Numbered from the stretch's first letter, positions 5,737-31,093 are shown. The stretch is DNA of 64,000 nucleotides from Eshraghiella crossota (GCA_963590075.1 CAVANK010000001.1:5394-69393), one strand, 5' to 3'. A program made the numbers and translations. Notes: generated from the letters alone by a model not told the origin.

Positions 5737-6219
5737 CTAAAACCTTACGTACGGTTGTACTTTTGTCAAATTTTTTCTTGTTAAAACTATATTTTGGGGC
5801 TTTTTGCCCTCGGTTTTCAAAGTGATATTTTCGCTGTCGTATGCAATTAGAATGCCGTGAGTTTTGTTTTTCGCGCCGTCGAAGCACTCTATCTCGGTGT
5901 CAAGCGCGCGTCTATAATCGTCATCGGACACGATTTTTCTGTCAAGTCCCGATGAGGACACGTTCAAGATGTAATCGTCCGCGAAATCATCCTCGATAGT
6001 GTCGAGCATACTCGAAAATACGTTGTGCACCGCTTCGCAATCGTTGAGAGATATACCCTCTTTCTTCCACAAAGACGCCTCGACGGTGAGTTTGCCGTAT
6101 TGCTTGTAGAAACTTACATCCACGAGTTCCACGCCATCGAAGTTTTGCACTGCTTTTTGCGCCATATCGCGCACTTCGTTCTCGACTTTTTCGGAAATCA
6201 ATTTTTTCTCGTCGCTCAT
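5737..6219 (-). CDS. rimP: ribosome maturation factor RimP
   Basis: 160 aa, immediately upstream of nusA. AAGAGG RBS 5-10 nt upstream of the ATG. Confidence 0.9.
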   Translation of the reverse strand: MSDEKKLISEKVENEVRDMAQKAVQNFDGVELVDVSFYKQYGKLTVEASLWKKEGISLNDCEAVHNVFSSMLDTIEDDFADDYILNVSSSGLDRKIVSDDDYRRALDTEIECFDGAKNKTHGILIAYDSENITLKTEGKKPQNIVLTRKNLTKVQPYVRF

Positions 6220-20775: not shown

Positions 20776-21147
20776 TTATATTTTTTTAGTGCGCGAACGG
20801 GAGATAAGCCCGAAGACGAATCCGCAAACTATTACGGTGGTCAAGCCCGCCGATACCGCCGTCATTCCGCCCGTGATTGCGCCCAAAAATCCGTCCTTTT
20901 GCATGCCTTCGAGTGCGCCTTTGGCAAGGTTAGAGCCAAAACCCATAATGGGTATCGTCACGCCCGAACCCGCAAATTCCTTCATCGGTTCAAACGCTCC
21001 GCATACTTCCAGCACCACGCCTACGAGCATATACGTCACGAGTATACGTGCCGAGGACATTCTTGTTTTGTTGATGAGTATTTGTCCGAGCATACACACG
21101 AGACCGCCCACGGCAAACACTTTGAGATAATCGAGAAATATATCCAT
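20776..21147 (-). CDS. spoVAE: stage V sporulation protein AE
   Basis: 123 aa membrane protein, SpoVAE-like (GSGVTIPIMGFGSNLAKG). Confidence 0.85.
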   Translation of the reverse strand: MDIFLDYLKVFAVGGLVCMLGQILINKTRMSSARILVTYMLVGVVLEVCGAFEPMKEFAGSGVTIPIMGFGSNLAKGALEGMQKDGFLGAITGGMTAVSAGLTTVIVCGFVFGLISRSRTKKI

Positions 21148-21239
21148 AATTCACCTTATTTTGCTATTTTTTCCCAACTAGATTTCTGCATTTCATTATA
21201 TCTCTAACAAAAGTTTATAGCATTTACCCAAAAATCCAA

Positions 21240-21323
21240 TCTTCCTTATGTCATTGCGAGCGCAAGCGTGGCAGTAGACAATGGACTTGTGAGTTGTCTT
21301 TGCCATAGCGACGACTTTTGCTC
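21240..21323. repeat. mosaic intergenic repeat, locus B (modules shared with 23200-23680)
   Basis: CCTTATGTCATTGCGAG is the reverse complement of 23541-23557. The 50-nt module at 21266-21315 is the reverse complement (~85% by eye) of 23214-23263. Confidence 0.8.
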
Positions 21324-21373
21324 AATATCACTTGTGCTAGCACAAATATCACTGCACGAAGTGCAATATCACT
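21324..21373. repeat. array of 3 x AATATCACT separated by two unrelated perfect mini-hairpins
   Basis: AATATCACT-TGTGC.TA.GCACA-AATATCACT-GCAC.GAA.GTGC-AATATCACT. The last copy overlaps the spoVAD stop codon. Confidence 0.85.
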
Positions 21374-22565
21374 ATAACAATTGCTCAATCTCCAACGTTA
21401 CGGCATGCGCAATACCGGGGATCGTTTCCTTTTGAAGAGGCGTATCTTTGTTGAGCAATGCGCCCGTGGGCACGATAAGCACCCTTTTGAGTTCTCCGCG
21501 TTGCATTTTTTTGAGAATATAGCCGTTGAAAGCGGTATTTACGCACCCCGCACCCGATCCGCCTTGATACGTTTTTTGTTCGGGTGTAAAATAACTTGCA
21601 CCGCAATCCATATAGTATTTGGGCAAAATATACCCTTCTTTGGACAGCAAATATTCAAGCGTTTGCTTGCCGAAACGCCCCAAATCTCCCGTAAATATGC
21701 CGTCGTAATAGTCAAAGGAGCGTCCGCTTTCTTTGAAATGCGTAAGAATAGTATCGCAAGCGGCGGGAGCCATTGCCGCGCCCATATTTGCCTCGTCGTC
21801 TATACCGAGGTCTACGACTCGACCGAGCGTTCCGCCCGTGACTTTGACGCAGTAGGCGTTGGGTTTGAGATAGTCGTTGTTTTCCTTTTCAAAGTTGCTT
21901 TCTATGATATTTGACTTCTCTTTATTGATGATTTTCTTTTGTTTTTCAATGCTTTTCTTATATTTTTGGAGCGTTTTTTCGTCGATATTCATACCCTCGT
22001 CAATGGCAATGATATCGTCCTCGTACACTCTTTCGTTGATAAGCCTAGGTTTTTGACTGCTCAAAACAGTGCATCCCGCGCCCGTAACAGTCCATTGCGC
22101 GGTAGGCGTGCGTTGATTGCCGAGTTCAAGCGGAAAACGATATTGTCTTTCCGCCGAAGCAAAGTGGCTTGACGTCGAACATGTCACGTTATCGGCATAT
22201 CCGCCCGATATGAGCATTGCGCCGACGATTAAACTTTCGCTAAAAGTAGAGCAAGCGTTGTATAGTCCTAAAAACGCCGACGGAAAATTGCGCGCGGCAA
22301 GCGACGTTGCGGTCAATTCGTTGAGCAAGTCCCCGCCTAGCATTATGTCGATATCCTCTCTTTTAAGTCCCGCTTTTTTGATTGCACCGCTTACGGCGTC
22401 TCGTTGCATCTTGCTTTCGCACTTCTCGTAGGACTTTTCGCACCACAAATCGTTGTCGAGCACGATATCGAAACAATTGCCGAAATTGCCGTCACCCTCT
22501 TTCGGACCTACGATGGTAAATCCGCTCTTTATATACACGGGTTTTGAAATCTCAAAAGTTCGCAT
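21372..22565 (-). CDS. spoVAD: stage V sporulation protein AD (thiolase-like), with internal K/E/N-rich insert
   Basis: SpoVAD N-terminus (SGFTIVGPKEGDG). Start trimmed to the ATG at 22565, 9 nt after the spoVAC stop; the ORF track extends to 22667. Confidence 0.9.
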   Translation of the reverse strand: MRTFEISKPVYIKSGFTIVGPKEGDGNFGNCFDIVLDNDLWCEKSYEKCESKMQRDAVSGAIKKAGLKREDIDIMLGGDLLNELTATSLAARNFPSAFLGLYNACSTFSESLIVGAMLISGGYADNVTCSTSSHFASAERQYRFPLELGNQRTPTAQWTVTGAGCTVLSSQKPRLINERVYEDDIIAIDEGMNIDEKTLQKYKKSIEKQKKIINKEKSNIIESNFEKENNDYLKPNAYCVKVTGGTLGRVVDLGIDDEANMGAAMAPAACDTILTHFKESGRSFDYYDGIFTGDLGRFGKQTLEYLLSKEGYILPKYYMDCGASYFTPEQKTYQGGSGAGCVNTAFNGYILKKMQRGELKRVLIVPTGALLNKDTPLQKETIPGIAHAVTLEIEQLL

Positions 22566-22573
22566 TTTGCACC

Positions 22574-23014
22574 TCACATCACAAAATAGCCGATAAAGCC
22601 GACCACAAAACTTGCCACCTCGCCGAAAACGATAATAGGACCTGCGATGACGAACATCTTTGCGCATACACCGAAGAACACACCCTCACGGTTGTATTCC
22701 ATTGCGGGTGAAACCACGGAGTTTGCAAATCCCGTGATGGGGATAATCGAGCCACCGCCCGCGAAATGCCCCAGTTTGTCGTAAAATCCGAGCGCGGTGA
22801 AAAGGCTCCCGAGGAAAATCATTACGCAACTTTCCCACGTCGCGACGTCCTTTTTGCTCATATCCTCAAAAATGAGTTTGACGATATCTCCCACGCCCTC
22901 ACCGATACAACAAATAATTCCGCCCACGAGAAAAGCGGCGAACAGCGTGCGCACCATAGGAGACTTGGGAGCGTTGTCTTTTACGTACTTTTGATACTCT
23001 TTCCTATCTAACAT
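22574..23014 (-). CDS. spoVAC: stage V sporulation protein AC
   Basis: 146 aa, 4-TM SpoVAC pattern (GGSIIPITGFANSV). AGGA RBS. Confidence 0.9.
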   Translation of the reverse strand: MLDRKEYQKYVKDNAPKSPMVRTLFAAFLVGGIICCIGEGVGDIVKLIFEDMSKKDVATWESCVMIFLGSLFTALGFYDKLGHFAGGGSIIPITGFANSVVSPAMEYNREGVFFGVCAKMFVIAGPIIVFGEVASFVVGFIGYFVM

Positions 23015-23204
23015 ACATCGTCCTTTTTTGCGCCCTTATCGACCTTTTTAGCGGAATTTTCAACGTCGAAAAGAAGGTCTTGCCTTACCCCCTCAACGTT
23101 GGGATTATTCTTGAAATAAACCTCTTTATCTTCGACGTTTTTGGAAAAGAGCGCGTCCATACGGCATAATATTTGCCACAAATCGCGCTTTTTAATCATC
23201 TAAA

Positions 23205-23580
23205 CGAACAAATGACGTCGCTGTGGAAAAGACAACTCACCAGTTCATTGTCTAACGCCACGCTAGCCTTATTGTTCTTAACCAAGCAACCAGTTGCTCA
23301 AACGGCATCGCGGTGATGACAACAAACGCATTTGTTGCCATAAACCGCATTTGTTCTCGCAACTACTACCGCACAGCCAATCTTCGCTATCAGTTCAAGC
23401 AGGAATAAATAATCTTTCCACAGTTTCGCAAGATTGTCTGTTTGGTGTGAATTGGATAAAAACTTAATCCACAGTTTCGCTATATCGCTTGCTTGGTGTG
23501 TGCGCCTTCGGCTAGATTGCCACGTCGCAATATTCATTGCTCCTCGCAATGACATAAGGAAGATTGAAATATTCCGCAAC
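23205..23580. repeat. mosaic intergenic repeat, locus C (between sigF and spoVAC)
   Basis: Shares modules with loci B, D, E, F and G (see findings). Has an internal duplication of CCACAGTTTCGC...TTGGTG. Many short perfect hairpins. Confidence 0.8.
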
Positions 23581-23675
23581 TTGCGCCGACGGCGCAAATA
23601 TCACTTTTAGCCTTAGGCTAAAAATATCACTGTTGCGGTAGCAACAATATCACTTGCCGAATGGCAAATATCACT
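23581..23675. repeat. array of 4 hairpin + (A)ATATCACT units
   Basis: TTGCGCC.GAC.GGCGCAA-ATATCACT, TTTAGCC.TTA.GGCTAAA-AATATCACT, GTTGC.GGTA.GCAAC-AATATCACT, TGCC.GAAT.GGCA-AATATCACT. The array ends 6 nt from the sigF stop codon. Confidence 0.85.
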
Positions 23676-23681
23676 CTTAAT

Positions 23682-24398
23682 TTATTCTTGACTTAACTTT
23701 TCCTTCAACTTTTGCAACACTTTGCCCTCTATTCTGCTCACTTGCACTTGCGATACGCCAAGTTCCGTTGCAATCTCACTTTGCGTTTTGTCTCTGAAAT
23801 AGCGCATAATTATCACTTTTTTCTCACGCGGCGGAAGTTCCTTTATAAAATCGCGGAGCATAATCTTGTCCAAATCCTCGTCGGGAGAATTGTCTCCGAC
23901 GATTTTATCCCCGATTTGCCCCTCGTCGTCTCCGATTGGTTGCGACAAGGATATCAGATAATGCGTAGCATCCATTGCAAACACCACTTCTTGCGCCTCT
24001 ACGCCGAGTTCCGCGGCGATTTGCTCAACGTCGGGTTCGGGTTTTCCCGCCTTTACGGTCTCGTCGATATACACGTTTATGCGCATTGCAAGCGTTTTCG
24101 TCCATCTCGACACCTTGATTGCTCCGTCGTCGCGCAGAAAACGCTTGATTTCACCGCTTATCATGGGAACGGCGTACGTTGAAAATCTGACGCCGTACTC
24201 GACGTCAAAATTTTGCACCGCTTTGACGAGCCCCATCGCGCCCAACTGCATCAAATCGTCGTATTCCAAGCGCCCCTTAAAACGCTTTACGATAGATTTT
24301 ATAAGCGGAATATTTTCTTCTATCAATTTCTCTTTGGCGTCGTCGTCACCCTCTCTTGCGCGCTTGATAAGCGCAACGGTGGTTTGATGGTCTAACAT
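23682..24398 (-). CDS. sigF: RNA polymerase sporulation sigma factor SigF
   Basis: Sigma-70 regions 2-4 (FSTYAVPMISGEIKRFLRDDG, GVSQVQVSRIE). Third gene of the spoIIA operon. The start at 24398 is preferred over the ORF-track start at 24428. Confidence 0.9.
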   Translation of the reverse strand: MLDHQTTVALIKRAREGDDDAKEKLIEENIPLIKSIVKRFKGRLEYDDLMQLGAMGLVKAVQNFDVEYGVRFSTYAVPMISGEIKRFLRDDGAIKVSRWTKTLAMRINVYIDETVKAGKPEPDVEQIAAELGVEAQEVVFAMDATHYLISLSQPIGDDEGQIGDKIVGDNSPDEDLDKIMLRDFIKELPPREKKVIIMRYFRDKTQSEIATELGVSQVQVSRIEGKVLQKLKEKLSQE

Positions 24399-24817
24399 CC
24401 CTTTATAACCTTTTTCATACGCACGCACGTGCCTTCACCGACGGCTGAAGTTACGCTCATCTCGTCCATAAATGTCTCGATTATGGTAAATCCCATACCG
24501 CTACGCTCTTCGTCGGGCGCGGTGGTGAAAAACGGCTCGATTGCCTCTTTTACGTCGGCAATACCCTTTCCGAAGTCACGCACGACTACTTCAAGCACGT
24601 TATCTTCCGTTTTGCACTCGATTTGCACTACGCCGTCGCTACCCGAGTATGCATGCACGACGCAGTTGGTAACCGCTTCGCTAACGGCAGTCTTAATATC
24701 GTTGATTTCCTCTATCGTCGGGTTGCACTGCACCGCAAAACTCGCAACGACGTTTCGCGCAAACGCCTCGTTCTCGCTTGTGGCAAGCAATTTCATATCA
24801 AAATAGTTCATACTCAC
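24392..24817 (-). CDS. spoIIAB: anti-sigma F factor (serine kinase) SpoIIAB
   Basis: 141 aa, HATPase_c motifs (EAVTNCVVHAY, DFGKGI, SGMGFTI). Confidence 0.9.
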   Translation of the reverse strand: MSMNYFDMKLLATSENEAFARNVVASFAVQCNPTIEEINDIKTAVSEAVTNCVVHAYSGSDGVVQIECKTEDNVLEVVVRDFGKGIADVKEAIEPFFTTAPDEERSGMGFTIIETFMDEMSVTSAVGEGTCVRMKKVIKGC

Positions 24818-25325: not shown

Positions 25326-25403
25326 CGGGGTGTAGCGCAGTTTGGCTAGCGCGTCTGATTTGGGTTCAGAAGGTCGGGAGTTCGAATCTCTTCACCCCGA
25401 CCA
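25326..25403 (+). tRNA. tRNA-Pro (anticodon TGG)
   Basis: Cloverleaf read by eye: acceptor CGGGGTG/CACCCCG, anticodon loop TTTGGGT, T-loop GGTTCGAAT-like, encoded CCA. Confidence 0.9.
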
Positions 25404-25428
25404 CGAACACACTCACACACGATGATTC

Positions 25429-25505
25429 GGGCCTTTAGCTCAGTTGGTTAGAGCAGTCGGCTCATAACCGATCGGTCCGCGGTTCGAGTCCGTGAAGGCC
25501 CACCA
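25429..25505 (+). tRNA. tRNA with CAT anticodon (elongator Met or lysidine-modified Ile2)
   Basis: Acceptor GGGCCTT/AAGGCCC, anticodon loop CTCATAA, encoded CCA. I cannot distinguish Met from Ile2 by eye. Confidence 0.85.
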
Positions 25506-25524
25506 TAAATAAAAAAATTTGTTT

Positions 25525-25601
25525 GGCCCGGTAGTACAGTTGGTTAGTACGCCAGCCTGTCACGCTGGAGGTCAGGGGTTCGAGCCCCCTCCGGGTCGCC
25601 A
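25525..25601 (+). tRNA. tRNA-Asp (anticodon GTC)
   Basis: Acceptor GGCCCGG/CCGGGTC, anticodon loop CTGTCAC, encoded CCA. Confidence 0.9.
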
Positions 25602-25606
25602 TCCAA

Positions 25607-25640
25607 ATATGTGGCAGTGACAACCGTCACTGCCATATAT
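25607..25640 (+). other. strong hairpin in the spacer between tRNA-Asp and tRNA-Phe
   Basis: TGGCAGTGAC-AACC-GTCACTGCCA extended by A/T pairs. No T-run follows. Confidence 0.6.
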
Positions 25641-25677
25641 CTAAAAAAGGGATTTCTTCCCTACCAAGCTTTTATAT

Positions 25678-25753
25678 GCCTCGGTAGCTCAGGTGGTAGA
25701 GCAAGGGACTGAAAATCCCTGTGTCGGTGGTTCGAGTCCGCCCCGAGGCACCA
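25678..25753 (+). tRNA. tRNA-Phe (anticodon GAA)
   Basis: Acceptor GCCTCGG/CCGAGGC, anticodon loop CTGAAAA, encoded CCA. Confidence 0.9.
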
Positions 25754-25765
25754 ACAACTGAATAC

Positions 25766-25841
25766 GCTGGTGTAGCTCAATAGGCAGAGCAACTGATTTG
25801 TAATCAGTAGGTTGTTGGTTCGATTCCGATCACCAGCTCCA
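25766..25841 (+). tRNA. tRNA-Thr (anticodon TGT)
   Basis: Acceptor GCTGGTG/CACCAGC, anticodon loop TTTGTAA, encoded CCA. Confidence 0.9.
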
Positions 25842-25844
25842 TAC

Positions 25845-25929
<85 letters not shown>

Positions 25930-25931
25930 AG

Positions 25932-25965
25932 AAAATCCGTGTCGTTTGGCACGGATTTTCCTTTT
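25932..25965 (+). terminator. rho-independent terminator of the tRNA operon
   Basis: AAAATCCGTG / CACGGATTTT stem followed by CCTTTT. Confidence 0.8.
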
Positions 25966-25984
25966 GTCAAATCCTTTGCCTTTC

Positions 25985-26195
25985 GACAGTATTTTTTTGG
26001 TACTACCGCAAGCAAAGAGAGACGCAAGCGCGTAGCATTTGCGGAAATCGTGCGTAGCGGACATAGTAAACAAAAAAGACACGCAGTGTCCCGTGCAACG
26101 CACGGTGTGCGACAGCACTATTTGTTTGCGTAGACGGCACAACAATACCGCAATTTCGCAAGATTGTCTGTTTGGTGCGCCTTACGGCGTATTTT
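25985..26195. repeat. mosaic intergenic repeat, locus D (downstream of the tRNA operon)
   Basis: Starts with TACTACCGCA as in loci C and E. The 24 nt at 26154-26177 are identical to 23424-23447. Confidence 0.7.
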
Positions 26196-26227
26196 TAGGT
26201 GTTCCATATTTTATTACTTAAATATTA

Positions 26228-26258
26228 AAAAAAACACATCGAATTGATGTGCATAAAA
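26228..26258 (-). terminator. strong minus-strand rho-independent terminator with no annotated gene upstream
   Basis: On the minus strand: CACATC-AATTC-GATGTG followed by a run of 8 T. Confidence 0.6.
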
Positions 26259-26545
26259 CAGTTCAACGTTTCTTATTATCAAAGCAATTTATTAGGCGTT
26301 TGTTAAATTCACTTGGTTAGATATACGCTTTTCTTGGTTATGGCGTTTAATGTTTCCATCATTACGATCATCGACGAGGTATAAGCGAGTCGGGCAATCC
26401 GATGCTTATAAACGATAGATAGATTATCGCAAGCAAAGTCCGTACATATATTTCCAACCTTTCGTCGTGGAAATTTTAACATACTTGCACTCGTTTATCA
26501 ATAAGTTAAATAATAAATTTAATGTATCATACCATACGCTTAAGT

Positions 26546-26574
26546 TTGACATTGCGCGCGTATAGGCGCATAAT
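26546..26574 (+). promoter_or_regulatory. sigma-A-type promoter in front of the 40-aa ORF
   Basis: TTGACA (26546-26551), 17 nt, CATAAT (26569-26574). The -10 is part of the inverted repeat CATAATG-TGCG-CATTATG, which includes the ATG. Confidence 0.45.
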
Positions 26575-26583
26575 GTGCGCATT

Positions 26584-26706
26584 ATGAAGGAAAAATTCAC
26601 TGCTCGCTCGCTTATAGGTCTCGGACTTCTCACCGCGGGCATAGGCTTGATAATCTGTTTCATTCTATTATCCCAAAAGCATATCGTCCAACAGTCTGCA
26701 ACTTAA
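26584..26706 (+). CDS. candidate 40-aa hydrophobic peptide (MKEKFTARSLIGLGLLTAGIGLIICFILLSQKHIVQQSAT)
   Basis: Found by hand; it is below the ORF-track cutoff. One predicted TM. A TTGACA-17-CATAAT promoter ends 10 nt before the ATG and there is no SD, so it may be leaderless. Confidence 0.3.
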   Translation: MKEKFTARSLIGLGLLTAGIGLIICFILLSQKHIVQQSAT

Positions 26707-26830
26707 TCGCATCCTGTTTTTATATCTTTGATATCGATAAAATACAAAACCTTTCGTTTGCGTTTGCGTTCGTCAAAAGCCCGCAATCACTCCGATTTGC
26801 TTACAATTTTTGATATATTGCCAAGATATA

Positions 26831-26859
26831 TTGACGTTTTACGCATAGTTTGATACAAT
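26831..26859 (+). promoter_or_regulatory. sigma-A-type promoter of the recombinase gene
   Basis: TTGACG, 17 nt, TACAAT. The -35 overlaps the second of two GATATATTG direct repeats (26812-26820, 26825-26833). Confidence 0.5.
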
Positions 26860-26888
26860 TATCTTATCCAATCACGCGAGGAAAATTT

Positions 26889-27962
26889 ATGACAAACTAT
26901 TTCACCGAAAGGGACAAATACCTTGCAAAGCGTTTGCGCGTTTTGAGAGACCAACTTCCAGAGTTTTGCGAGGAGTTTTTTGTGGGTATCGAACCGCAGA
27001 CTTCACCGCTTACGAGGCTCAATTATGCGTACGATTTGCGCATATTCTTTGACTATTTGCTCAAAAACGTGCGTGCTTTCAGAGATTATAAGGACGTTTA
27101 CGATTTCGTCGTAGAGGATTTGTCAAAAATCACTCTCGGCAACTTGGAAGCATACGTGGAATACCTCTCTTATTACGAGTTTGAAGGCAAAGAATACACC
27201 AACGCCGAGAAAGGCAAAGCGCGCAAACTTTCCACTATCCGCACCTTTTTCAAGTACTATTTCAATCACGACCGTATTCCGTCCAACGTATCGGCAAAAC
27301 TCACTATGCCCAAACTTCACGACAAGGACATTATCCGCCTTGAAAAAAAGGAAGTCGAACGCATACTCGACGCGGCGGAAACGGGCAACGGTATGACGGA
27401 ACATCAGCGCAAAATTCAACGCAACACTCGTGCGCGCGATTACGCAATCGTGACGTTGCTTTTGGGTACGGGCATACGTGTCAGTGAGTGCGTGGGGCTC
27501 AATCTCAACGATATAGATTTTGAGACAAACGCCTTCACTGTCACTCGAAAAGGCGGAAATCAAGCCATTTTGTACTTCGGAGACGAAGTTCGCGACGCAC
27601 TTTTGACCTATATCGACACCGAGCGCAAGGCACTTATAGACAGATGTCAAAAGATAAACACGGGAGACAACGACGCGCTGTTCTTGTCGCTACAAGTCAA
27701 GCGTATTTGCGTGCGTGCGGTGGAAAACATCGTCAAAAAGTACGCTCAAACCGCCGCTCCGCTCAAAAAAATATCTCCGCACAAACTTCGTAGCACGTAC
27801 GGAACGAACCTATACCGCGCCACGGGTGATATATATCTCGTTGCCGACGTATTGGGACACCGAGACGTCAACACCACAAAAAAACACTACGCCGCAATCG
27901 AGGAAGATCACCGCAAACTTGCCGCAAAGGTAGTCAAACTTCGTAGCAACGACGACGATTAA
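26889..27962 (+). CDS. tyrosine site-specific recombinase (XerC/XerD/phage-integrase family)
   Basis: 357 aa from the ATG at 26889 (GAGGA RBS). N-terminal SAM-like domain. Catalytic R (TGIRVSE), HxxR (HKLRST), H...Y (GHRDVNTTKKHY). Confidence 0.85.
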   Translation: MTNYFTERDKYLAKRLRVLRDQLPEFCEEFFVGIEPQTSPLTRLNYAYDLRIFFDYLLKNVRAFRDYKDVYDFVVEDLSKITLGNLEAYVEYLSYYEFEGKEYTNAEKGKARKLSTIRTFFKYYFNHDRIPSNVSAKLTMPKLHDKDIIRLEKKEVERILDAAETGNGMTEHQRKIQRNTRARDYAIVTLLLGTGIRVSECVGLNLNDIDFETNAFTVTRKGGNQAILYFGDEVRDALLTYIDTERKALIDRCQKINTGDNDALFLSLQVKRICVRAVENIVKKYAQTAAPLKKISPHKLRSTYGTNLYRATGDIYLVADVLGHRDVNTTKKHYAAIEEDHRKLAAKVVKLRSNDDD

Positions 27963-28147
27963 AACCAATACCGTTAAATTTGCGATACTAAATCACAAAA
28001 TCGGCTCGTTTTACAGTCGCAATCGCAAAAAAATCGGCTCAAATTGCCGTGCTCAATCGAAAATAAACTTACTCGATTTGCAGTATGCCGTCGCAAAAAA
28101 CGGCTAACTTGCACGATAGGATTTGTATAATACACCGATTTCAACCA

Positions 28148-28180
28148 CCGACGGAATGCCATTCTGTCGGTTTTACTTTT
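28148..28180 (+). terminator. rho-independent terminator downstream of the recombinase gene
   Basis: ACCGACGGAATG / CATTCTGTCGGT stem (one G-T pair) followed by TTTTACTTTT. Confidence 0.6.
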
Positions 28181-28214
28181 ATATTTGACAAAATTCGCTA
28201 TTTTTCCAATATAA

Positions 28215-28258
28215 ACTATTATCTAATATTGACTATTTTATAATAGTTTGCTAAAATT
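28215..28258 (+). promoter_or_regulatory. promoter of the PadR-like gene with an overlapping inverted repeat (candidate autoregulatory operator)
   Basis: TTGACT (28230-28235), 17 nt, TAAAAT (28253-28258). A 9-bp inverted repeat AACTATTAT (28215-28223) / ATAATAGTT (28241-28249) brackets the -35. Confidence 0.55.
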
Positions 28259-28284
28259 ATTATATTAAATTTCGGAGCAACTAT

Positions 28285-30246
28285 ATGGATATTTCTTCGG
28301 TCAACAGCGACCTCATACGCGGTAACGTCACGACAATCATTCTCGGTTGTCTGTGGGAAGGCGACAAGTACGGCTATGAGATTATGAAAGAAATCGAGGA
28401 CAAGAGCAATTCGCAATACGTCCTCAAACAAGCCACTCTTTACAATCAGCTCAAACGACTTGAAAAGCAAGGGCTCGTTTCCTCATACGACGGCAATCCC
28501 GACGATACCGGCGGTGGCAAACGCAGATACTATTCCCTCACGGGCGAAGGCAAAGCCTATCTCAAAAAGGAAAAGAGCGAATACGAGTATTCGCGCACCA
28601 TTTTGGACAAACTCGTTTCGGCGCAAGAGTACGACTTCACCGCGCCTATTCCCTTCGATGCGAGCGAATTGCGCCCCTACGCCAAACGCGACACCGAAGA
28701 CAAGCCCAAAGTGGTTTATAAGGAAAAACTCGTCGAGAAAAAAGTTTTCTTTGACCGCTACGGCAACGAAGTGAGCGAAGAGGACGCCGACGCACTCAAA
28801 GAAAAGGCACTTGCCGACGACGAGCAAGCACGCCTCACCGAAGAACAACTCAAAAAAGCGGAAGACGACGCCCGCCAAAAGGACGAGCAACTTCGCTTGA
28901 AAGAGGAGCAAGCTCAAGAAAATGCCGAAAAATTGCGTCAACAAGAGGAAGAAGCTCGCCAAAAGGACGAGCAATTGCGCCAAACGGAAGAGCAATTGAG
29001 AAAGTCCGAAGAAGACCGCCAATTCGTCAAATCTATGCTCCGTCAAATGGAAGAAGAAAAGATGCGTGCCGAAGAGCAAAAGCGTCTTGAAGAAGAGGAA
29101 CGCAAGCGCAAAGAGGAAGAAGAGCAAAAACGCCTTGCCGAAGAAGCGGAGCGCAAACGCCAAGAGCAAGCAAAACCCGCTCAAACTCTTGAAGAAATGT
29201 TTGCCAAACTCGATGCGGAGAGCGAATACAATCGTGGCGAACAACCTCTTCATGTATATCACTACGACAACGTTCAGCCTCAAGAGCATACATACCTCAA
29301 CGGCTACAACGCTCAACCCGAACAAACCACGGGACGCGCGCAAACGTCGCTCAAAGACATTTTCAAGCAACTTGACGAAAAAGAGGCTCAAATAGACGAC
29401 AAACTTGCCAAAGAGCAAGAGGAGCAACAAGCTATCGAGGCGCAACGCATTGCCGAGCAACGAGCGATGCAAACCGCACAAGAGCAAGCTTACGCCCCCA
29501 CCCCGCAATCCGACGCGCACTATATGCCTGCCGAGATCGAAACTCGCAATCAAGCGTACGACGAACCGAGCGATAAAGGCAAATTCGTGACGTCCGCGGT
29601 CGTCAATCGTCAAGAAGGCGGATTTGAATACGAAAAAGACGACGTCAACTATCGCGAATTCTTCGTATCTCTTGCCGACCAAAATCAAAAAGAAGAGGTC
29701 AAAGAGGAAAAACCGCAACAACAAGAGTATTCCGACAGCGACATCAAGACGAGATTGTATGCAAAGGGCTTCAAAATCCGCCCGTACGACAGAGGCAACA
29801 CCTCGGAGTACTACACGTTCAACTTCATACAATCCAATCGTCTCAACCGCGATACTTTCCTCATCATTCTTGCGTTCTTCGTCGCAGAAGTCGCAATTAT
29901 GTGGCTATCGCTGTTTTCAAGAATAAGCTACGCTTATTTCTTGCCGATTTTGCTCGTGGGAAGCGCGCTTTGCCTCATTCCGACGGTTATCTATATGATG
30001 AACCCGACAAGGCGCAAACGTGCCAATTTCAATTTCAAACTGTCAATTCTCAACCGCACGATGTTGTTTATAGAATTGACCGTGGTATGTATCCTCATCG
30101 GCTTCTTCGGACTCGGAGCAAACGTCAACGATATGGATCTCATTCTTATGTCGATAATACTTCCGATGGTGCTCCTCACCAACCTCCCGTTGAGCTCTCT
30201 CATCTACTGGTTGCTTTACAGAACCAGAAAATACCATACTGCATAG
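28285..30246 (+). CDS. PadR-family winged-helix domain fused to a long E/K/Q coiled-coil region and a C-terminal 4-TM anchor
   Basis: 653 aa. N-terminal ~100 aa are PadR-like (GYEIMKEI...ATLYNQLKRLEKQGLV...RRYYSLTGEG). aa ~170-330 are heptad-like EEQLR/ARQKDEQLR repeats. The last ~115 aa have four hydrophobic helices. Confidence 0.75.
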   Translation: MDISSVNSDLIRGNVTTIILGCLWEGDKYGYEIMKEIEDKSNSQYVLKQATLYNQLKRLEKQGLVSSYDGNPDDTGGGKRRYYSLTGEGKAYLKKEKSEYEYSRTILDKLVSAQEYDFTAPIPFDASELRPYAKRDTEDKPKVVYKEKLVEKKVFFDRYGNEVSEEDADALKEKALADDEQARLTEEQLKKAEDDARQKDEQLRLKEEQAQENAEKLRQQEEEARQKDEQLRQTEEQLRKSEEDRQFVKSMLRQMEEEKMRAEEQKRLEEEERKRKEEEEQKRLAEEAERKRQEQAKPAQTLEEMFAKLDAESEYNRGEQPLHVYHYDNVQPQEHTYLNGYNAQPEQTTGRAQTSLKDIFKQLDEKEAQIDDKLAKEQEEQQAIEAQRIAEQRAMQTAQEQAYAPTPQSDAHYMPAEIETRNQAYDEPSDKGKFVTSAVVNRQEGGFEYEKDDVNYREFFVSLADQNQKEEVKEEKPQQQEYSDSDIKTRLYAKGFKIRPYDRGNTSEYYTFNFIQSNRLNRDTFLIILAFFVAEVAIMWLSLFSRISYAYFLPILLVGSALCLIPTVIYMMNPTRRKRANFNFKLSILNRTMLFIELTVVCILIGFFGLGANVNDMDLILMSIILPMVLLTNLPLSSLIYWLLYRTRKYHTA

Positions 30247-30309
30247 CAAAAATCGTCGAAGTGGCAATGGCAACACGCACTCGTGCGTATTGCCAATAGC
30301 CACTCTTGA

Positions 30310-30525
30310 TTTATTGCTCTACTACCGCGCAACCGATACACGCTATCAGTTCGTGCAAGGATAAAACTCCCGCCACAGTTGCGCTATATCGCTTGCTTGG
30401 TGTTTCGGCTACCGCCTAAATTGCCACGCTACCGCTCGCAATGATATGGAATATTCCACTTGTCATTCCGAGGAGCAACGATAGTTGCACCGTGGGAATC
30501 CAGCGTAGCGCAAAAAATATCACTA
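30310..30525. repeat. mosaic intergenic repeat, locus E (upstream of the tRNA-Trp promoter)
   Basis: Collinear with 23360-23560. The 31 nt at 30373-30403 match 23469-23499 with 1 mismatch. Long hairpin at 30435-30472 around the palindrome GGAATATTCC. Ends with a single AATATCACT (30516-30524). Confidence 0.8.
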
Positions 30526-30561
30526 TATGATGACAAAGTAAAACTAATTGGGCTCAAATTA

Positions 30562-30590
30562 TTGACTAAAATAAATACAGTTGATATAAT
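30562..30590 (+). promoter_or_regulatory. consensus-like sigma-A promoter of tRNA-Trp
   Basis: TTGACT, 17 nt, TATAAT, ~22 nt upstream of the tRNA 5' end. Confidence 0.7.
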
Positions 30591-30612
30591 ATTTAAGCAT
30601 TAAATCTCACAA

Positions 30613-30687
30613 AGGGGAGTGGCTCAACGGTAGAGCAACGGTCTCCAAAACCGTTGGTTGCGTGTTCGAATCGCGTCTCCCCTGCCA
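30613..30687 (+). tRNA. tRNA-Trp (anticodon CCA)
   Basis: Acceptor AGGGGAG/CTCCCCT, anticodon loop CTCCAAA, T-loop TTCGAAT, encoded CCA. Confidence 0.9.
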
Positions 30688-31093
30688 CGAAGAAGTACTT
30701 TGGTACTTCTTCTTTTTTTGCAGTCTTTCCGCGATTAGAACACGCAACGCATACGCGACGGAACTACACTCCTTGCGTCTGCGGTTTCGTGTGACATTTC
30801 GTTTTGCAAATTACATTTGCACACTCCATTATTCCAGTCGCCTTGCGACCTCACGAATCGCGTCTCCCCTGCCACGAAGAAGTACTTTGGTACTTCTTCT
30901 TTTTTTGCAGTCTTTCCGCGATTAGAACACGCAACGCATACGCGACGGAACTACACTCCTTGCGTCTGCGGTTTCGTGTGACATTTCGTTTTGCAAATTA
31001 CATTTGCACACTCCATTATTCCAGTCGCCTTGCGACCTCACGAATCGCGTCTCCCCTGCCACGAAGAAGTACTTTGGTGCTTCTTCTTTTTTA
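30667..31093 (+). repeat. 187-bp tandem repeat (2 full identical units plus a ~50-bp third start), each beginning with the last 21 nt of tRNA-Trp
   Basis: Unit starts at 30667, 30854 and 31041. Units 1 and 2 matched at every base when compared by eye. Confidence 0.9.
30689..30719 (+). terminator. rho-independent terminator of tRNA-Trp (first of three copies)
   Basis: GAAGAAGTAC-TTTG-GTACTTCTTC followed by T7. Repeated at 30876-30906 and, with one stem change, at 31063-31093. Confidence 0.85.

Follow-up and report, generated by a model that had tools for sequence, protein, structure and literature searches.

A Gut-1-type mini-hairpin array at the spoVAD stop codon of Eshraghiella crossota suggests a dispersed, modular DNA repeat

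The window analyzed in this study, by which the whole stretch of DNA is meant, comprises 64,000 nt of Eshraghiella crossota (GCA_963590075.1 CAVANK010000001.1:5394-69393). Its minus strand harbors, in order, spoIIAA, spoIIAB, sigF, a small open reading frame (ORF), spoVAC, spoVAD, and spoVAE(B), as assigned by Pfam, with sigF located at positions 23682-24428, SpoVAC at 22574-23014, the 397-aa spoVAD coding sequence at 21372..22565 (Pfam PF07451, E 1.6e-125), and SpoVAE(B) at 20776-21147. Between spoVAD and spoVAE lies a 224-bp spacer (21148..21371), which is composed of a hairpin array (array 1), two repeat modules designated M_B and M_A, and an AT-rich stretch, and in which the minus-strand ribosome-binding site of spoVAE, AAGGTGAA (21150..21157; start codon ATG at 21145-21147), has been retained; the ribosome-binding sequence GGTGAATTATG is likewise present in the relatives L120 and L124. 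No convincing sigma-70-type promoter for spoVAE was detected within the spoVAD-spoVAE insert.

Array 1 (21324..21373, minus strand), which was delineated by sequence and by its Rfam match, consists of three AGTGATATT joints and two mini-hairpins. On the plus strand, it reads AATATCACT, T-TGTGC-TA-GCACA-A, AATATCACT, T-GCAC-GAA-GTGC-A, and AATATCACT, with the 8-mer cores starting at 21325, 21346, and 21366, the two hairpins occupying 21332..21345 and 21353..21365, respectively, and the GAA loop of the second hairpin being found on the plus strand. Every stem is lengthened by one pair, to which each 9-mer contributes its final T and the following 9-mer its initial A. The spoVAD stop codon (21372..21374, minus strand), a TAG in which TA is completed by a G from the first joint, shares 2 nt with the last 9-mer, and the hairpins begin 9 nt past this stop and are devoid of U-tracts. 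An earlier note on this DNA had described the same layout and core positions, with which the sequence agrees in every detail, and had further claimed that the last 9-mer copy supplies the spoVAD stop, that a gap of ~225 bp separates spoVAD from spoVAE, and that both arrays of the window present AGUGAUAU and the hairpins on the mRNA strand at or next to a stop codon; all three claims were borne out, the ORF ending at 21372 where that of the relative L124 ends differently, the gap measuring 224 bp, as opposed to 17-19 bp in three array-less relatives, and the two arrays being co-oriented. The 9-mer AATATCACT occurs nine times in the 64-kb window, compared to an expectation of 0.35 and with none of 100 shuffles reaching nine copies, and seven of the nine fall within arrays 1 and 2. 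As the folding energy of array 1 as RNA is no better than that of shuffled sequence (z -0.19), the case for its structure rests on the comparison with its family.

The second array (array 2; 23568..23675, minus strand, delineated by sequence) represents a complete arm, in which four hairpins and four AGTGATAT joints are capped by the terminal module GTTGCGGAATATT, the four 9-mer copies being located at 23597-23675. It lies 6 nt beyond the TAA stop codon of sigF (23682..23684, minus strand; placed by ORF end, sequence, and Pfam), folds better as RNA than shuffled sequence (z -5.4, with four hairpins in the centroid), and shares 96.6% identity in its terminal part with locus L053. Outside the arrays, one solitary AATATCACT copy (5821..5829, minus strand) displays no visible hairpin context, and another (30516..30524, plus strand) is situated beside M_C and M_A-like modules upstream of a tRNA gene. 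Module M_B (21265..21313), which was identified by sequence comparison and is fused directly to the truncated array 1, shares 88% identity with positions 23216-23264 in the opposite orientation and also follows complete arms in L259 and L271. Module M_A (21237..21260; cttccttatgtcattgcgag…), identified in the same manner, is identical at 24 of 24 positions to 23543-23566 in the opposite orientation and resembles 30422-30444; M_A-like modules also come after many metagenome arms. All three modules accompany arms in metagenomes of close relatives and are absent from the 118 genome loci listed.

Array 1 is genuine and belongs, as a sub-threshold member, to a known though uncharacterized family, the Gut-1 RNA motif, described by Weinberg et al. 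in 2010 (PMC2864571) and rated there and by Rfam (RF01706) as a probable RNA with covariation. Both arrays align to the RF01706 model, array 1 at 21320-21388(-) with 39.1 bits (E 4e-4 for the whole window) and array 2 at 23593-23676(-) with 41.5 bits (E 1e-4 for the whole window), in each case below the gathering cut-off of 50 bits. Sister copies of the window type from metagenomes pass this cut-off (50.2-60.6 bits), matches above it were obtained in 8 of 18 genome loci tested, and other loci score 52-74 bits. By the operational rule of Rfam, the window arrays would, therefore, be classed as sub-threshold relatives of Gut-1. Gut-1 is characterized by at least three short hairpins with AU…GU bases and a 3-nt GAW junction, an architecture which that of the window matches; in the model alignment and across 41 arms, at least three consecutive AU…GU hairpins joined by GUGAWAU were found, and the A-U and U·G base pairs are invariant in the 41 aligned arms. 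The habitat, gut Clostridia, is likewise shared. The window joint, however, contains GAU as opposed to the GAA of the Gut-1 consensus, although the published Gut-1 alignment already holds versions with a GUGAUAU joint (PMC2864571). Moreover, members of the family often possess an inverted second arm which falls outside the Rfam model and which is visible, unannotated, in the flank of the published alignment (PMC2864571). A literature search for the 9-mer returned unrelated primer matches only, and one for Gut-1 returned the 2010 Weinberg paper only. By comparison with longer copies, array 1 is an arm of a Gut-1-type repeat truncated at its far end, which accounts for the presence of just two hairpins: its two units correspond to the first two units of the full arm in L244, it is devoid of the far units and the terminal module, and its third joint is fused to M_B (compare L259). 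The T-GCAC-GAA-GTGC-A unit recurs identically in L128 and L244, and the L128 homolog of the T-TGTGC-TA-GCACA-A unit exhibits a compensatory change from a T-A to a C-G pair.

The history of the spoVA locus was reconstructed from its relatives. The exact SpoVAD of the window is present on seven public contigs, all carrying an identical array; the window and L131-L136 thus share the 224-bp spacer and the 2-unit truncated arm fused to M_B (L136 ending inside the array). The array is absent from L124 (98.7% SpoVAD protein and 89% spoVAD DNA identity to the window), L120 (96% protein identity), and L125 (94% protein identity), in which the corresponding spacers measure 19, 18, and 17 bp, respectively, and no Gut-1 match was found around spoVAD in 34 kb across four other relatives (L120-L123). 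This comparison of spacing, which the earlier note had proposed, identifies the array as an insertion. In L124, the nearest array-less relative, spoVAD ends in …ctt ttg caa aac TAA, its product being two residues longer (…LLQN*), and together with the empty sites this implies that the element was inserted and supplies the stop. Array 1, therefore, cut off the last two codons of spoVAD, with its first bases creating a new TAG. Relative to L124, the junction falls between ttg and caa, at the center of the 10-bp palindrome TTTTGCAAAA (TTTTG^CAAAA), with no duplication; the old end of spoVAD persists as caaaaaTAG at the right junction, and spoVAE has been moved ~200 bp downstream.

A different picture is presented by L127, L128, and L130, whose spoVAD shares 93.4% DNA identity with that of the window and is followed by a full arm of 4-5 units with a terminal module; the spoVAD-spoVAE spacer of L127-L130 measures 190-216 bp and is unlike that of the window in content. 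The arrays of L127 and L128 differ by one unit at 99.75% spoVAD identity, and between L127 and L130 (98.5% identity) three of five hairpins differ, partly via compensatory pair changes; array content thus changes far faster than the flanks. Array 2 at sigF is present only in the window's own lineage and represents a second, later insertion. The sigF-spoVAC spacer (window 23200-23596; compared in L124, L127, L132, L137, and L139) forms a graded series among the relatives, with lengths of 11, ~105, ~180, and ~440-470 nt, is built from M_A, M_B, and M_C, and always displays the right junction …gtttagatgat-TAA; it represents an intergenic site that accumulated successive insertions. The spoVAD insertion is bordered by TAG on either side and the sigF spacer by TAA, and the inserts are mosaics; these repeated trinucleotides are no more than suggestive of target duplication, and no clear terminal inverted repeats or target duplications were evident at the window insertions.

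The dispersal of the family was assessed by searching a single genome of each species for triplets of ATATCACT with spacings of 8-22 nt, which identified at least 118 loci, those listed deriving almost entirely from genome bins of gut Clostridia (Acutalibacteraceae, Oscillospiraceae, Christensenellaceae, and others). An array lies within 250 nt of a contig end in 32 of the 118 loci listed, as opposed to 4.7 expected, and eight independent Logan contigs carrying spoVAD (L136 and L137-L143) stop 45-48 nt after its stop codon, at the same joint inside the array. A metagenome scan for window-type arms (two joints followed by GTTGYGGAATA) yielded 72 loci; seven arms fitting this strict pattern reside on a single 183.6-kb contig, with ~22 arms in ~1.2 Mb of contigs from the same assembly, and the Rfam model finds extra copies overlooked by the pattern. 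Left flanks are mostly unrelated (39 clusters among 44), and right flanks are conserved (28 clusters among 45). The 61 unique metagenome arms contain 220 units drawn from only 36 distinct stems, the most common being TCGCAC (30), TCTCGC (23), TGCGAC (18), TTTTGGC (17), and TGTTGC (15). Stem order varies; arms nearly always finish with a TCGCAC or T(T)GCGCC unit, after which comes the palindrome GTTGTGGAATATTCCAC. With these properties, the family has the appearance of a dispersed, modular DNA repeat and not of a single sRNA gene. When the three-copy pattern was applied to viral contigs as a control, 75 of 81 arrays proved to be ordinary tandem repeats without palindromic spacers. Carriage by phage was rejected, as only 1 of 82 viral matches was of the hairpin type; this sole genuine array lies on L148 (IMG/VR, 1478-1533; AAAACC-GAAA-GGTTTT and others), the other 81 pattern matches being ordinary tandem repeats, many of them in giant-virus bins.

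Within the family, short perfect hairpins of 4-9 bp with 3-4 nt loops are strung together into an arm by a conserved 8-nt joint which reads AGTGATAT on one strand and ATATCACT on the other, and in full copies the arm closes with the palindromic module GTTGYGGAATATTCC. The repeat period is 20-26 bp, the spacers between joints are palindromes of 8-18 nt, and with few exceptions each spacer of the genome loci forms a distinct, perfect hairpin. Across 235 unique spacers read in a simple symmetric register, 93% of positions pair; when 41 arms were formally aligned, pairing was seen in 94.8% of cells and double-sided changes in 17 of 26 pairs, such changes affecting 196 cells, compared to 57 in shuffles, and one-sided (wobble) changes affecting only 3. 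G·T mismatches, at 20 of 1418, are as rare as A·C mismatches, at 15. That wobble pairs are almost missing is more in line with pairing of the DNA type than with that of the RNA type.

The loops are strand asymmetric, GAA, GCA, GTA, GCAA, GTAA, and GAAA being found on the ATATCACT strand, such that the stable GNA/GNRA loops and tandem G·A mismatches occur on the strand opposite to the Rfam Gut-1 orientation. This asymmetry counts against a plain double-stranded palindrome, which would not show it. In the Rfam orientation, on the other hand, the joints provide each stem with extra A-U and U·G pairs, and computed RNA energy is lower (-6.74 versus -6.04 kcal/mol; 184 of 225 units). The criteria for a functional strand, therefore, conflict: wobble counts are symmetric, loop identity favors the ATATCACT strand, and nearest-neighbor energies favor the AGUGAUAU strand as RNA and neither strand as DNA. 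Because GC skew on the plus strand of the window is negative throughout and ~45 of 57 ORFs are located on the minus strand, the AGTGATAT strand would correspond to the lagging-strand template and the GNA-loop strand to the leading-strand template.

Many genomes contain composite copies in which two arms are arranged in inverted orientation, most commonly as four AGTNNTAT joints followed by four ATANNACT joints; the reverse order was never seen. Among the genome loci, full four-plus-four pairs account for 33 of 138 clusters, and about half carry both arms. The composites span ~175 bp, many are preceded at a distance of 0-1 nt by a long hairpin or terminator, several are followed within a few nucleotides of the last joint by a -35/-10-like pair, and many copies are inverted pairs located between a terminator and a promoter. 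Their left end, GTTNTATTCGCC, is complementary to the center, GGCGAATAN'AAY (e.g., L031 3505-3681 and L039 2323-2497), and the variable position of this long-range helix is A/T in 18 cases, C/G in 14, T/A in 8, and G/T in 1, i.e., compatible in 41 of 41. The helix competes with the first local hairpin and falls outside the Rfam model; in composites of other genera, a 12-nt inverted repeat bounds the left arm. The window arrays, which are solo arms, contain no counterpart of this helix. Pairing between left-arm and right-arm joints was considered and dropped, as the joint variants do not match.

From the position of two arrays relative to stop codons, the earlier note had argued for targeted insertion or a function at gene 3' ends. 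Insertion as such is upheld by the empty sites, whereas stop-codon targeting does not hold as a rule for the family: when arrays with at least three copies were counted as stop adjacent if their outer end lay no more than 15 nt from a convergent stop codon, only 5 of 111 qualified, including the window's own two. Among 61 metagenome arms of the window-type subfamily, 16 share their strand with the upstream gene and 21 are opposite to it (p = 0.51), with 8 of the 16 same-strand cases beginning within 15 nt of a stop. Solo arms in genome bins are co-oriented with the upstream gene in 21 cases and opposite in 5, a count which includes the window's own two arrays, relies on crude ORF calls, and probably repeats orthologous loci. 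Given the 5 of 111 arrays and the lack of strand bias, two arrays in one operon do not establish stop targeting or a 3'-end function. The joint itself holds TGA in one frame and gives TAG when placed after TA, by which a copy landing in the last codons of a gene readily closes the frame, and such end-of-gene insertions may be those likely to be tolerated.

We favor, with moderate confidence, the interpretation of these arrays as a non-autonomous DNA repeat which spreads and recombines at its joints and whose effects on spoVA are incidental. Under this proposal, the family would multiply and rearrange at the DNA level, with the joints providing the common sequence through which copies acquire, lose, and trade units. 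The hairpins, which stay exact Watson-Crick palindromes, would matter, or would be corrected, in single-stranded or cruciform DNA, such intermediates presumably being acted upon by a joint-specific enzyme; as a guess only, the mobilizer may be a single-strand DNA enzyme which recognizes hairpins, similar to the REP mover. At the locus studied here, comparison with the relatives shows that one arm entered between a Leu codon and the last two codons of spoVAD, creating the new TAG. Any consequence for the operon is assumed to be incidental, the hairpins on the spoVAC-D message perhaps impeding 3'-exonucleases or termination-coupled events. Searches for a mobilizing gene identified no recurrent transposase-like family in the flanks of 115 loci, none in ten window ORFs scanned, and none between duplicated arrays, the sole recombinase near the window arrays being an ordinary tyrosine recombinase 3 kb away. 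That some copies in other genera keep a fixed, complex layout, with three Watson-Crick variants of the long-range helix (41 of 41) and conserved right flanks, is easier to reconcile with a selected function than with a purely selfish repeat, and the conservation of the 8-nt joint across several Clostridia families implies a conserved reader, be it protein or RNA.

A functional structured RNA, i.e., a 3'-untranslated or intercistronic element transcribed with spoVAC-D and sigF which stabilizes the upstream message or whose joints bind a protein, is the alternative which survives best, and we nonetheless regard it as rather unlikely. It would be in keeping with the published rating of the motif, the placement of both window arrays on the mRNA strand right after stop codons, the joint-derived A-U and U·G pairs with the lower energy of 184 of 225 units, the G·U pair in which the long-range helix of composites ends in the Rfam orientation, and the 21-to-5 co-orientation of solo arms in genome bins. 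An RNA helix would, however, be unusual in having wobble pairs almost absent from its variable stems; the stable GNA/GNRA loops are on the other strand, inverted pairs place one arm of each orientation in any transcript, the window-type subfamily is without strand bias (16 versus 21), copies often begin right after the T-run of a terminator, the spoVAD array folds no better than shuffles, and close relatives do without it. The pairing statistics and the strand-symmetric placement, in particular, argue against an RNA-only role.

More specifically, Gut-1 arrays may represent a previously unrecognized kind of repeat, rather than an sRNA, in which mini-hairpin units are gained, dropped, and swapped at the conserved 8-nt joint by an enzyme acting on single-stranded hairpin DNA. 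We put this forward as a doubtful, speculative extension of the DNA-repeat interpretation; it would explain the Watson-Crick-only stems, the occurrence of DNA-stable GNA loops on one strand, the small, shuffled vocabulary of stems, and the fast divergence between near-identical genomes.

An array of host DNA sites, in which the 8-mer binds a nucleoid protein, a topoisomerase, or a regulator and acts as an insulator between transcription units, appears improbable. Periods of 20-26 bp (about two helical turns), the strict conservation of the joint across families, arms inverted around a center, and composites which exactly fill the space from a terminator to the next -35 box would suit such sites, and the binding of gyrase and IHF by BIMEs provides a parallel; the spacing varies, however, and the sites are thus not phased, binding to double-stranded DNA requires neither exact palindromes nor asymmetric loops, no candidate protein was found, and the window copies are located inside operons and not between them. 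Chance or slippage, a CRISPR-like array, and tandem intrinsic terminators are hardly credible: the 9-mer count is far above chance and the spacers are distinct palindromes rather than mutual copies; the alternation of repeats and spacers resembles CRISPR only superficially, the 8-9 nt repeats and 8-18 nt palindromic spacers contrasting with the 23-47 bp repeats and 26-72 bp non-palindromic spacers that CRISPR needs, with no cas genes among the ORFs examined; and the three array hairpins that a simple scan weakly flagged as terminator-like, on account of their T-rich joints, are followed by AGUGAUAUU, which is no real U-tract, and would have to be read through for spoVAE.

Among known repeat systems, the DNA repeat proposed here invites comparison with the REP/BIME elements of Enterobacteria and Pseudomonas (including REPINs, which are moved by RAYT), with which it shares short extragenic palindromic units, a conserved flanking oligonucleotide, clustering, often as inverted pairs, placement after genes and inside operons, and many copies. 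Many copies and inverted pairs are found in the family as a whole, the window itself containing only solo arms. Sequence similarity to REP is, however, absent, as is GTAG: a REP is an imperfect palindrome of ~35 nt with a 5' GTAG, whereas the units here are perfect palindromes of 12-18 nt flanked by AGTGATAT. In addition, the joint is conserved and the hairpins vary, while the REP hairpin itself is conserved within a genome; copy number is in the tens, as opposed to hundreds for REP; and no RAYT-like gene was found in the window ORFs scanned or in the flanks of 115 loci. REPs stabilize upstream mRNA, and those near stop codons reportedly lower translation; a similar stabilizing or translation-damping effect on the spoVA operon is possible. 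The pneumococcal BOX element (boxA-(boxB)n-boxC) is likewise a modular intergenic repeat with variable internal units, a fixed terminal module, strong secondary structure, and a unit number that differs between strains, yet the present family has far smaller units (20-26 bp), lacks a 5' module resembling boxA, and uses a stem vocabulary of at least 36 types. Similar to MITE/Correia elements (CREE), the arrays are small, non-autonomous intergenic insertions which can alter neighboring gene ends and transcripts, but the window arms, which open with AGTGATAT and either close with GTTGCGGAATATT or are cut short, have no matching ends that would form terminal inverted repeats, and contain an internal hairpin array rather than one long inverted repeat.

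Since 2010, Rfam has listed Gut-1 as an orphan "sRNA", with gut metagenomes as its only known source. The Rfam entry describes a stand-alone sRNA gene without an assigned function, whereas the element encountered here behaves as a multicopy, inserted, and shuffled repeat; the spoVAD locus and its relatives, through a dated insertion, empty sites, unit turnover, and copy numbers, speak for a dispersed DNA repeat and not for a gene. The locus represents a well-controlled example suggesting that the "Gut-1 RNA" behaves as a mobile, shuffled hairpin-array repeat, a reading which changes how Gut-1 should be annotated and studied. Such arrays break metagenome assemblies and can rewrite gene ends, as evidenced by the last two codons and stop of spoVAD and by the 200-bp wedge in the spoVA operon. 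If unit shuffling does have an enzyme of its own, a new mechanism of mobile DNA would be at hand.

Several further features of the window and of related loci were recorded. In a region at 25326-31092, the tyrosine recombinase gene (26850-27962), assigned to Phage_integrase by Pfam, is accompanied by a PadR-like ORF of 653 aa (28285-30246), both sitting between a tRNA cluster and a tRNA gene at 30613; M_C copies flank the recombinase region on both sides (26135-26179 and 30360-30404), and a tRNA 3' part with its terminator is tandemly triplicated at 30667-31092 in units of 187 bp. This region may represent a small integrated island. A weak match to the SAM_alpha riboswitch model (23027-23107, minus strand; 22.7 bits, E 0.04-0.8), which is located inside the small ORF upstream of spoVAC, is probably due to chance. 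The SpoVAD of the window's clade measures ~397 aa and matches Pfam in two stretches, and this split match, together with the greater length relative to the usual ~338-aa form, suggests that the protein carries an internal insertion. Finally, in L044, L046, L103, and L005, composites immediately precede the promoter of a small gene that starts MSNSILRDKAKEF…, the product of which may resemble four-helix-bundle ('23S rRNA intervening sequence') proteins.
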